Source: Rhina ancylostomus (taxonomy: Eukaryota). Taken from it: a DNA stretch of 64,000 nucleotides. Positions 3,289-15,814 of the stretch are shown here, in pieces. Made by a program: the position numbers and the translations under genes. Location: assembly GCA_030265395.1 (NCBI GenBank), contig JARFYF010000017.1, positions 14,086,374 to 14,150,373 of the forward strand. The letters run 5' to 3'. Each line of letters begins with the position of its first letter. Position 1 is the stretch's first letter. Under the pieces are notes generated by a model that had not been told where the DNA came from, searched no databases, and saw nothing but the letters and a program-made list of their open reading frames with translations.

Positions 3289-3505
3289 CTGAGNNNNNNN
3301 NNNNNNNNNNNNNNNNNNNNNNNNNNNNNNNNNNNNNNNNNNNNNNNNNNNNNNNNNNNNNNNNNNNNNNNNNNNNNNNNNNNNNNNNNNNNNGAGCAGT
3401 AGAACACACTCGTAATATTTCCTTTGAGGCTTCAGGAGGGGGAACAATTCTGTTGAAAAGTCCTGTTCTCAGTCGAGGTGTTGGGACCAACAATGTTTTC
3501 CTAGC
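3289..3505 (-). CDS. MTHFSD: MTHFSD coding exon 4 ([38 protein letters not shown]), interrupted by a probably spurious 100-N gap
   Basis: Acceptor tctag|GCT and motif [14 protein letters not shown]. The gap flanks overlap by gag; merging them gives a 114-nt exon ending CAG|gtgcgt. Confidence 0.92.
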
Positions 3506-11200: not shown

Positions 11201-11704
11201 CACCCCCCCCCCCCACCCTCAGCCTTCTTCATATGTATAGCACGATTTTATATTTTAAATAAACTGAGGCCTTGAAAGCACAAGGCAGCTGCTCATGTAT
11301 TTCTAAAAATCTGGCACAGGTGTTATTAAAAATTGGAATTATTGTTTTGTTTTAAAAACTAGGTTACATTGTGGTACCACATAAAATCATACACACAATT
11401 GTGGAATAATAATTAGATATTTTCAAATGCCTTAGAATGTGCTCATGAAATCCTGTATAACCAATTTCCAATTTCACGCACATCCTTTCCTGTTGAAGGA
11501 CTATCAAACATCCATGACTTAGATCTATTTTTAAGGGGGTAGCAGTCAATTATGTTGAGTTGTAAAATAGTTATTGGACATTGGGGCATCTACAGGTGTG
11601 TCCATGATGGGAATTTTTATAATAAATGTCTCCTGAACCAAAAAAGATCTTTTCAATTAAGGAGCATTAGTTAAAACTGCTGTGTTTAAGTACTTGACTA
11701 TTAC

Positions 11705-11818
11705 CTGGAGAGAGGCTAAGCGGACTCCTTCAAGTGGTTTGTCGGGATCCACCTTCAGTTCTCTTGCCTTGATGAAAAAATCTAGGCTTTTGATTTTATT
11801 GCAGGCATCGGATGCACC
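11705..11818 (-). CDS. MTHFSD: MTHFSD alternative exon 3b ([38 protein letters not shown])
   Basis: Acceptor aatgtag|GGT and donor CAG|gtaata; 114 nt, phase 0-0. [13 protein letters not shown] matches the canonical human isoform as I recall it. Confidence 0.92.
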
Positions 11819-11848
11819 CTACATTGACAATAAGAAACAAAAACTTAC

Positions 11849-11962
11849 TTCTAGAACAAGCAAACGGACATTTTCCTGTGGCTTGTCGGGATTTACTTTG
11901 ACAATCCGTGCGTTTTTGAACTCTCGGAGACTTGGCAAGTTTTCTGCAGCCTGAGCAGCTCC
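11849..11962 (-). CDS. MTHFSD: MTHFSD alternative exon 3a (GAAQAAENLPSLREFKNARIVKVNPDKPQENVRLLVLE)
   Basis: Acceptor aaacag|GGA and donor GAA|gtaagt; 114 nt, phase 0-0, open frame, with the KVxPDKP motif. Confidence 0.9.
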
Positions 11963-14010
11963 CTGTTTCCAGAAGATGTGACGAATTACAATTAACAACA
12001 ACCGGAAACATGGATGCTTTATTATATCTCCCACATTTTCAACTCTTTGTGCTCCCTTGCAGTACATTAACCTTTTTACCCACATAAATCTCCTATCCCA
12101 TTACATCTTAAAAAATCTGGATTACACAAGGGATTATGTTTCACTGTCGTATTTTGAACAGAGGTTGAAGCTATAAAATTGGAGTACACAGGCACTTAAT
12201 TTTTCCATCTGCAGCAAGCAATATTAATTACTTGAAAAAGCGCATTCAAGAAGTGCATACTCTAGAAATTAATATTGATAAAATAATCTTTTTTGTAAAA
12301 AAAAGATCTATAAATACCAGATGGTATAGTAGATTAGATAATGAATAGCTGATTTTTGGGACTTCAAGCCCAGTCTAGATGTACACACTAAAGGACTTCT
12401 CTATTTATTGCTGGTAAAGACCCCATGGTGATGAGTTGATGTTATGTTCAGATGAACATAACACAGGAATGGCACTTTTAATTCTGCCTTGATTAATCAG
12501 ATAACTCAAAAGACCATTGGATAGTTGGTCAACATCATGCTAATTACAATAGCATTGCAATAGGAGTGCTAGTTTTGAGCCACAATGTTAGGGCAAAGTA
12601 GGGCAAAGACTATTTTATTATTATTTTAACAATTACTATTTTATAACAAGGGCCTTGAAAGGCTTCCACACAGCACATAATCTAGAGAATTACATTAAGA
12701 AATTTATTTGTAGCTGTCACACAGAACATCAAATGAGCTCTGGTCCTCTGTGATTATGCATGTAAACACTCAGTCACAATGGTATCATATGGCGTTCAAC
12801 ATGTTTGGACATTACTCAGTTAAACCTCATTTGTACATGCATTGCCGCAGCACACGCAATTATAAGCAGGCCTTCAACAAGACATACAAGCCCGCAGTTC
12901 TGCATTACTTAATTAGGAGCTGGTTTTCCTGGTCCATCATCATGGAGTTTGATACCTGTCACCTCTTATTGGTGGTGTGCTCCCTTTAAGATTTTAAACA
13001 CAGAGTTCACACTCAACCCAACTACCACCCTACTAATAGGTCTCCTTTGTCCCCTACCAAATTAAGGCCCAAATCTATCCCCAAACCCCCATTTTTCCAT
13101 CCAAAAAACTCAATGCTATCACCCTCCCGACATCCTGCCCTGATGGATGTAGTCTCTATTTCCCCACCGCCACCACCCCTGCGCATCCCCTCCCCCCTCC
13201 AAACAGAATTCCAAACTTCACCCTGCCTACAGACATGATGCCTCCTGAGGCCCTTTCTAATGCAATCCCCAGCCCACTACTTGCAACATACCTACATTCC
13301 TCTGCTCACTTTATTAAGGCAGAACGAGTGTGGGAAAGGCTTTTGTCTAAGTTTAGTTTACAGGATCATTTCTAATAGACTCAAATGACATGAGCATCTT
13401 GGCCAAGATCAATTTCTAGGCAGTCATCTGCAAATCCTTAGTAAATGGCATACTTCTTCTCGAAAGCAAAGGTCTCCTTCTACATTGTAAATATCTAAGA
13501 TTCCATAAAGATAATGGTGGCCCAAATATTCAACCTTTGTATCCTGGACATTAAAGGAGTTTGAAACAAAAATTAAATCAAAAAGCAGATGTGACATTGT
13601 AAGCAATCGGTACAAAGACAGGATAGCTTTAAGTATTACTTGAAACTGGCTACTTGCACATGTAAGTGACCAAGACACTCAAATGTAAATATGTGAAACC
13701 TTCAATTACTGTGTAAAGGTTTTTAAATAGAAAAACTTTTCTTTTAGTGTTTATTTTTTGTTGAAATTGTTTGGGTTAACAGACAGCACTCTACTAATCC
13801 AGGAAATTTAATGAATCAGCTTACTGACATCATCGACTTTGACCATCTTACACAAGCTTATGATTATTTATTCACAGTAGCGTGTTGCCAACAGATTCAC
13901 ATTCAGCCTGTCTGAATTACCAAGCAAAACAAATGCAGCTTGCTAATAATTTACCTCAGTCAAAATTGCCTAACCTGAACCTAAAGAGAGAACTTCAACC
14001 TTCACTTTAC

Positions 14011-14114: not shown

Positions 14115-15814
14115 CTAGGAAGAATTTAAAAAAACAATTAGGCTCTTAGATGGGCACATGAATGTGCAGAGAATGAGGGCTCTGGACAATGTGTAAGCAG
14201 AAGGGATTAGTTAGGCATTTAATTAATTTGGTGCAACATCGTGGGCCAAGGGGCCCGTTCCTATGCTGTACTGTTCTATGTTCTACGTTAATTCTTGGCC
14301 CAAGAAATCATTCCAAATTTACAATTTTCTTATTTTTTTAATCAACTGAACGAACAAAATGATCAAAATTTGTTACACGAAGAACTCATATATATTCCTT
14401 CAGAGGAGAGGCAGAATGTCAATATTAACAAGAGGAAATTATTTTTATGATCCACATAATTAATTTATCTGCTTGAAAAATGAACTTAATTATTTGTTTT
14501 TATTTCTGAAACTGGCATTTTTTTTATTTGACCATGAAAGCCAATCAACCATGACTAATGCAGCTAGTTGAACAGTCATAATCTTTTGAATTTTCTTGCC
14601 AAGAGGGTGGAGCACCAGCTGTTCAGTACACTTANNNNNNNNNNNNNNNNNNNNNNNNNNNNNNNNNNNNNNNNNNNNNNNNNNNNNNNNNNNNNNNNNN
14701 NNNNNNNNNNNNNNNNNNNNNNNNNNNNNNNNNNCTTAAATAAAATACCCTTTATATACCCACTGCTTAGGTTTTTCTTCAGCTCTGTAGATGTGACAAT
14801 TAGGTATTTATATCCTTACATGACCAATGCACTCTTTCCCTGCACCATTCCAACCGCAATGGTATTTTTGAGTTTGTTTTTTTTTTAAAACTTCGTTCAT
14901 CACACATTTAATATAAAATCACAGTCCACTGAATGCCGTTAAAGGCTGCAAATCAATAGCAGAATCTGCTACCATCCACACCATTTGACTGAGGACCTAG
15001 TAATGTACTTGTGCATAACATTCAGCTATTAGAAACATATAGTTTGACAAATTGTTGTTGAAGCATTAGAAATACTCATCTTTTTCCTACAGGTAATTTT
15101 ATTTCTCTTTTATTTAAACATTCCACTACTTTTTGTTACTGACTGGTGATTTCACTATCCCCTTTCACCTGGCTCCACCATCATTTTTGTTATTTGCTCT
15201 CTCCAGACAAGTCCTATTGGACCTTTTTTGTTTCCTTCTGTTCTCACCACTTCCTTCATGGCTGAAAATCTGTTTTTCTTTGAACCAGTTCTGATAATTG
15301 GCTATTGACCTGAAACATTAACTCAGTTTCTCTCAACACAGATTCTGCCCAAACTTATGAATATTTCTAATGATTTCTGTTTTATTTCAGATTCACAATT
15401 TCTACTTACTTTGCTTTAAACTTCATAAGTCCGTAAGTTTATACCACATTTTTCACATCTGTATAGTGGTAAACAAATTAAATATGGAGCAGAATCTTTG
15501 TTCTTTATTAATTAGTAATTCAAAAATCAGCAAATATATTATCCCCACAGAGACNNNNNNNNNNNNNNNNNNNNNNAGTTACTGAGAAAAACAAACTAAT
15601 CAGGGAAAGTCACCATCATTTTGTGAAATGATTATATTCGAGTTCTTTGAAGTAACAAGCATGGGGGATAAACTGTGGATAAACATAACTTGGATTTCCA
15701 TGAGGCATTTGATAAGCTGCTGCATCAAAATCACGACGTGGGAGTAATCATATTGGTTTAGATAGAAGATTGGCTGGTTAACAGGGAACAGTAAATGGGT
15801 CCAACTCGGGAGAT

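Follow-up and report, generated by a model that had tools for sequence, protein, structure and literature searches.

Mutually exclusive exons of MTHFSD in the ray Rhina ancylostomus and a 30-nt spacer that probably keeps them apart

On the minus strand of a 64,000-nucleotide stretch of the Rhina ancylostomus genome (the window), the gene MTHFSD carries two adjacent homologous exons, 3a and 3b, parted by a spacer of only 30 nt. The pair is already known, as a catalogued and ancient vertebrate case of mutually exclusive exons (MXE), and the window adds one more species to that record. The geometry of the spacer makes steric exclusion the very probable mechanism in rays and tetrapods.

The human pair is annotated as an MXE in the catalogue of Hatje 2017 (PMC5740500; cluster 1051, 114 nt, frame 0-0), where both exons are recorded as expressed and as differentially included in three data sets. 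The event table of Martinez Gomez 2021 (PMC8373072) holds MTHFSD as event 139, gives Vertebrata as its last common ancestor, notes its presence in the Hatje and Lam sets and has an empty cell under Proteomics; the supplement of Lam 2021 (PMC7954323) includes the gene id, and MTHFSD is absent from one supplementary file of Martinez Gomez 2022. An earlier, sequence-only reading of the window had placed two versions of this segment in human MTHFSD, correctly in the light of these annotations, and had supposed that the switch predates the split of sharks and bony vertebrates; it is indeed ancient, and older than was proposed, since lamprey has both exons and the literature places the event at Vertebrata. 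The human and ray pairs are orthologous. They agree in gene, exon order, length (114 nt), phase (0-0) and motifs, and differ only in the species and in a ray spacer 2 nt shorter than the 32 nt given by the catalogue coordinates of the human exons (86552033-86552146 and 86552179-86552292). The human catalogue rows are silent on spacer length and on which copy is ancestral, and no main-text study of two MTHFSD isoforms or of the spacer was found among the openly accessible papers searched.

The exon pair and its gene

The sequence-only reading had described two 114-nt, phase 0-0, stop-free exons with AG before and GT after, encoding alignable 38-mers across a 30-nt spacer. All of this holds on the minus strand, the plus strand containing stops at the pair; the strand, and the TAG with which the spacer ends in frame, had been omitted (Table 1). 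The acceptors of 3a and 3b are cag and tag and the donors gtaagt and gtaata, respectively. The two copies agree at 19/38 amino acids and 60/114 nucleotides, the best identity to 3a among 100,000 shuffles of 3b being 12/38, and the homology claimed for them is borne out. Adjacent, homologous, equal in length and phase and each with its own splice sites, they have the make-up of a tandem-duplicated MXE; no third copy of the motif was found in the six frames of the window. Coding exons 1, 2 and 4 are all frame-compatible with either copy. The spacer length is a multiple of three, and both a joined 3a+3b and a retained spacer would stay in frame, the latter as far as the TAG. The spacer has a single YTNAY, a putative branch point situated 18 nt away from the donor and 13 nt away from the acceptor.

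Table 1. Coordinates of MTHFSD features in the window
Feature	Position	Strand	Description
MTHFSD exon 1, coding part	24099-24072	-	28 nt from ATG
MTHFSD exon 2	14114-14011	-	104 nt; last codon complete (phase 0)
Candidate weak 3a acceptor	11963..11980	-	purine-rich; near-identical in ray and bird; putative role
MTHFSD exon 3a	11849..11962	-	upstream copy of ancestral type, 114 nt in phase 0-0, with motif V-N-P-D-x-P-Q
Spacer 3a/3b	11819..11848	-	30 nt; 3a donor GTAAGT, U-rich tract, 3b acceptor AG; in-frame; terminal TAG; unstructured
MTHFSD exon 3b	11705..11818	-	downstream vertebrate copy, probably derived, 114 nt in phase 0-0, with motif V-D-P-D-K-P-L-E-G
MTHFSD exon 4	3394..3505	-	starts at 3505 in phase 0; end runs into N gap 3294-3393

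The identity of the gene is well founded. A query with the 3a protein returned proteins named MTHFSD, the best from Pristis pectinata at 90%, and the exons of the window are 74-95% identical to ray MTHFSD; in relatives the protein consists of a 5-FCL-like domain (PF01812) followed by a C-terminal RRM, and it is this architecture, together with high identity to named MTHFSD, that marks the gene as an ortholog. The bare 38-mers of 3a and 3b have no match in Pfam. We take MTHFSD to be the animal member of the COG0212 paralog group, a member of which was reportedly the subject of a 2011 study by Pribat et al. The paralog of plants and bacteria has been tied to thiamin metabolism, its function being described as unknown, and a review connects MTHFSD, which binds RNA, with the stress-granule pathways of ALS.

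The exons beyond exon 4 were also located in the assembly. Exons 5 and 6 map to another contig, C84 (93788319-93790153), the others lying on C17, the contig of the window; the matching stretch of C17 is mostly N, and the C84 sequence is likely a misplaced scaffold piece and not the sign of a split gene. A high-copy repeat, with a depth >100,000 in both read sets, occupies positions 14140-14300, a short way upstream of exon 2. A single-exon forkhead gene (PF00250; 55938-57428, plus strand), presumably FoxC2-like, stands head to head with MTHFSD in an arrangement that we take to be that of the human FOXF1-MTHFSD-FOXC2 cluster; a literature search on this arrangement found nothing.

Length of the spacer and its consequences

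Comparison of spacers among vertebrates, which the sequence-only reading had proposed, gave 30 nt in a related ray (in a contig that spans 11336-12167 with 0 gaps and has three substitutions in the spacer), 32 nt in human, and 41 nt and 67 nt, respectively, in a bird-like and a teleost-like host-derived locus recovered by a pattern scan of metagenome contigs. The 3a donor, GAA/GTAAGT with the exon boundary at the slash, is common to the ray, bird-like and teleost-like loci. According to published work, a branch point closer to the donor than about 50 nt falls under the steric limit (PMC5740500, PMC7969005), and introns of less than 65 nt become sparse in human (PMC4463651); short canonical introns can nevertheless be spliced at a low level, those that are spliced tending to be structured (PMC5435141). 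Because any branch point inside a spacer of 30-41 nt must lie less than 30-41 nt from the donor, the ray, human and bird spacers all fall short of that limit, the teleost one being borderline. The steric mechanism put forward in the sequence-only reading, judged by this geometry, fits rays and tetrapods. Sterics may not hold in teleosts, where the one measured locus, at 67 nt, comes close to the 65 nt that mark the lower edge in human.

On this mechanism, 30 nt would be too little for U1 to hold the strong 3a donor while U2/U2AF occupy the branch point and pyrimidine tract of 3b. Exon 2 would be spliced to one copy, either 3a or 3b, and that copy on to exon 4, each mRNA carrying one of the two or neither. 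A retained spacer would meet the in-frame TAG and lead to decay of the mRNA; because an in-frame 3a+3b mRNA would escape NMD, the block would have to act at splicing itself. Exons 2 and 3 of alpha-tropomyosin are a sterically enforced pair of this sort. In the human catalogue, steric MXEs make up 57 of 629 clusters (Hatje 2017), and the MTHFSD pair resembles them in a donor-to-branch-point distance below about 50 nt that was kept through vertebrate evolution. It differs from OGDH exons 4a/4b (PMC7969005), where a distant branch point within a longer intron was mapped experimentally, in that the whole MTHFSD spacer is below the limit and its branch point is putative. A hairpin or docker/selector pairing at the spacer was considered and rejected, the two short stretches folded being no better than shuffles (z -0.10 for the spacer fold, and 0.44).

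Across all seven cases measured or estimated the spacer is held at 27-67 nt, against 2-10 kb for the introns neighbouring the pair. This constancy speaks against the alternative, which we consider improbable, that exclusion comes from regulatory proteins or from splice sites competing by strength, with a weak, conserved 3a acceptor and a strong 3a donor, and that the short spacer is incidental. Differences in site strength would account for the choice of exon, not for the absence of mRNAs with both; 30 nt is too short to give the branch point the spacing that it needs from the donor, and folding of the spacer gave no stable structure. Regulation of this kind would, on the other hand, be in keeping with the purine-rich sequence at the 3a acceptor, whose conservation between ray and bird suggests a conserved weak or regulated site, and teleosts keep separate isoforms at a 67-nt spacer, so that a second layer of control may exist.

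Isoforms in related vertebrates

Usage of the exons was followed in relatives, mostly through annotated protein models and not reads; two sequence runs over the locus of the window yielded contigs that behave as DNA, with no joint at the exons, and are uninformative on splicing. Use of each exon alone is documented in relatives only, namely in cartilaginous fishes, lamprey, Logan proteins and the human catalogues. Separate 3a-only and 3b-only proteins occur in 13 of the 18 cartilaginous fish species seen, a further four being known by one 3b representative and Pristis by a joined model only. The isoforms of lamprey are of three kinds, 3a-only, 3b-only and skip-both. Full-length proteins from Logan contigs of 1.5-1.9 kb, a length at which they are likely spliced transcripts, all contain a single exon (6/6; three with 3a, three with 3b).

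A larger set of 164 proteins was classed by script into 93 with 3a, 49 with 3b, 12 with both, 8 with none and 2 without an anchor. Inspection by eye corrected some of these assignments: frog models with read-through of the spacer account for one of the "3b" (P0081) and one of the "both" (P0061), the "none" divide into four variants of 3a and four skip-both proteins, and two of the "3a" are scallops. The frog read-through models, flagged as low quality, gain 12 and 9 residues, respectively, from spacers of about 36 and 27 nt. Skip-both isoforms thus number 4/164, with others in Xenopus and lamprey; these in-frame forms (P0029, P0034, P0037, P0039, P0194, P0363) come from catsharks, devil rays, Xenopus and lamprey, and their products would lack a core strand. 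The proposal that exactly one exon enters each transcript stands in so far as the isoforms of relatives are of an either-or kind, and is relaxed to at most one by the annotated skip-both forms.

Joined forms, with 76 residues encoded by 3a+3b, are found in 11 of the 164 proteins (one ray, one gar and nine teleosts), in 4 more among a second set of 45, and in three further proteins, one of them mammal-like. In four cichlid species a joined form is one of several RefSeq isoforms and stands beside 3b-only ones (P0100, P0168, P0170, P0176); many of the joined models are single or "hypothetical". The clustering of these models in teleosts would match the borderline 67-nt spacer of the one teleost locus measured. 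It would be very unlikely for the two exons of the window to be spliced together across an ultra-short intron, so that the protein repeated the 38 residues in tandem. Such a product is what the sole model of Pristis pectinata, the closest named relative, depicts, as do the gar and teleost models; the join would be in frame, and short canonical introns do exist (PMC5435141). Pristis, however, is one model against 13 cartilaginous species with separate isoforms, none of the six Logan proteins is joined, and the read-through of the spacer in two frog models is a sign that gene predictors struggle at this place. Moreover, in the predicted structure the exon encodes a core strand with its helices, and there is no room for a second copy.

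Evolution of the two copies

Selection on each exon, a further comparison proposed by the sequence-only reading, was gauged from the ray against bird and teleost, with pS of 0.60-0.79 (saturated) and pN of 0.25-0.31 in both exons. On these sequence proportions both exons are under purifying selection. The notion that either copy has begun to decay into a pseudo-exon in this species, in favour of which 3b differs from the related ray by three amino-acid and two silent changes among those listed and 3a by none, merits next to no credence, as both have an open frame, intact splice sites and the invariant core motif, and the changes in 3b sit on the variable columns 3, 14 and 36, with the same residues in elephant shark at 14 and 36.

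In 89 distinct vertebrate 3a segments N24, P25, D26, P28 and Q29 are invariant, and in 50 distinct 3b segments the whole of K22-G31 is invariant, including L29 (D24, being the sorting criterion, is not counted). A more diverse set was assembled from 150 proteins, of which 134 aligned over the segment and 111 were left once 23 vertebrate-like rows had been dropped by eye. The N..Q combination is present in 78 of these 111 and D..L in 7; D is accompanied by L in 7 of 9 cases (Fisher p 1.7e-5, a statistic that ignores kinship). In a tree of 35 rows and 38 columns, whose bootstrap had not settled, the 3b sequences from lamprey to mammal form one clade (support 98/90) on a long stem, and 3a mixes with non-vertebrate single exons. 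Since 3b is a single clade and 3a lies among the non-vertebrate exons, 3a likely represents the ancestral state, and 3b would be a derived copy with a fixed N-to-D/Q-to-L change.

Two of the outsiders with D..L can be named, a leech and a woodlouse, both with single-exon genes. Convergence is preferred for these annelid-like and woodlouse forms because they lie outside the 3b clade, though 38 columns are too few to decide the point. A duplication before the vertebrates was considered and rejected: among 149 representatives two copies of the motif occur only in vertebrate-like proteins and in one whole-domain repeat, and the scallop, leech and woodlouse clusters each have one segment. Tandem copies of the entire domain were seen as well, P0210 (1810 aa) and P0337 (731 aa) comprising seven and three diverged MTHFSD-like domains, respectively. 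The idea that 3b is a dead enzyme copy was found unsupported, D..L being present in single-exon genes (7/111) and the core of 3b being more conserved than that of 3a.

Predicted structure of the exchanged segment

AlphaFold models of the stingray 3a and 3b isoforms (mean pLDDT 89.3 and 89.7) contain the same elements, and both match 5-FCL/MTHFS structures best. In these models the exon, residues 45-82, begins with a pair of short helices, and the core strand at 64-67 is joined by a loop to a helix at 71-82. MTHFSD shares with MTHFS (PF01812, TIGR02727) a common fold and Pfam family, the exon aligning with the first strand-loop-helix of the enzyme. It differs in its C-terminal RRM, in scoring far under the cut-off of the MTHFS equivalog TIGR02727 (27 bits for both isoforms against 84.9), and in a four-residue gap, seen in profile alignment to bacterial 5-FCL (1ydm, 2jcb), at the Glu-bearing loop after the first strand; the gap takes out the loop that carries this Glu in the bacterial enzymes and that would bind the pterin. 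In human MTHFS, E61 binds the substrate pterin (PMC10545881). We infer that the bacterial loop Glu is its equivalent, the alignment to human MTHFS having begun only at residue 73.

The swap would exchange one helix-helix-strand-loop-helix unit of the 5-FCL-like domain and leave the predicted fold unchanged. Judging from the models, it likely modifies the edge of the pocket that holds the ligand, 3a keeping the ancestral N..Q loop of the family and D..L in 3b likely tuning the binding of ligand.

Discussion

What appears to be unreported in the literature searched is the conservation of a spacer of sub-minimal length, its lengthening in a teleost alongside joined models, and the switch from an ancestral to a derived motif; the advance is a modest one. 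A bolder and rather unlikely reading, offered tentatively, would have the steric lock loosened in teleosts, as the 67-nt spacer and the joined cichlid isoforms might suggest, and would make 3b a vertebrate invention whose N-to-D and Q-to-L changes switch ligand preference.

The spacer is shorter than can be spliced in ray, frog, bird and human and is borderline in teleosts, which makes MTHFSD a clean test case for where steric exclusion fails; the loosening in teleosts, if true, would be a natural experiment on minimal intron length. The persistence of two isoforms for some 500 million years, distinguished by a two-residue change near the predicted ligand pocket, provides a handle on the biochemistry of MTHFSD.
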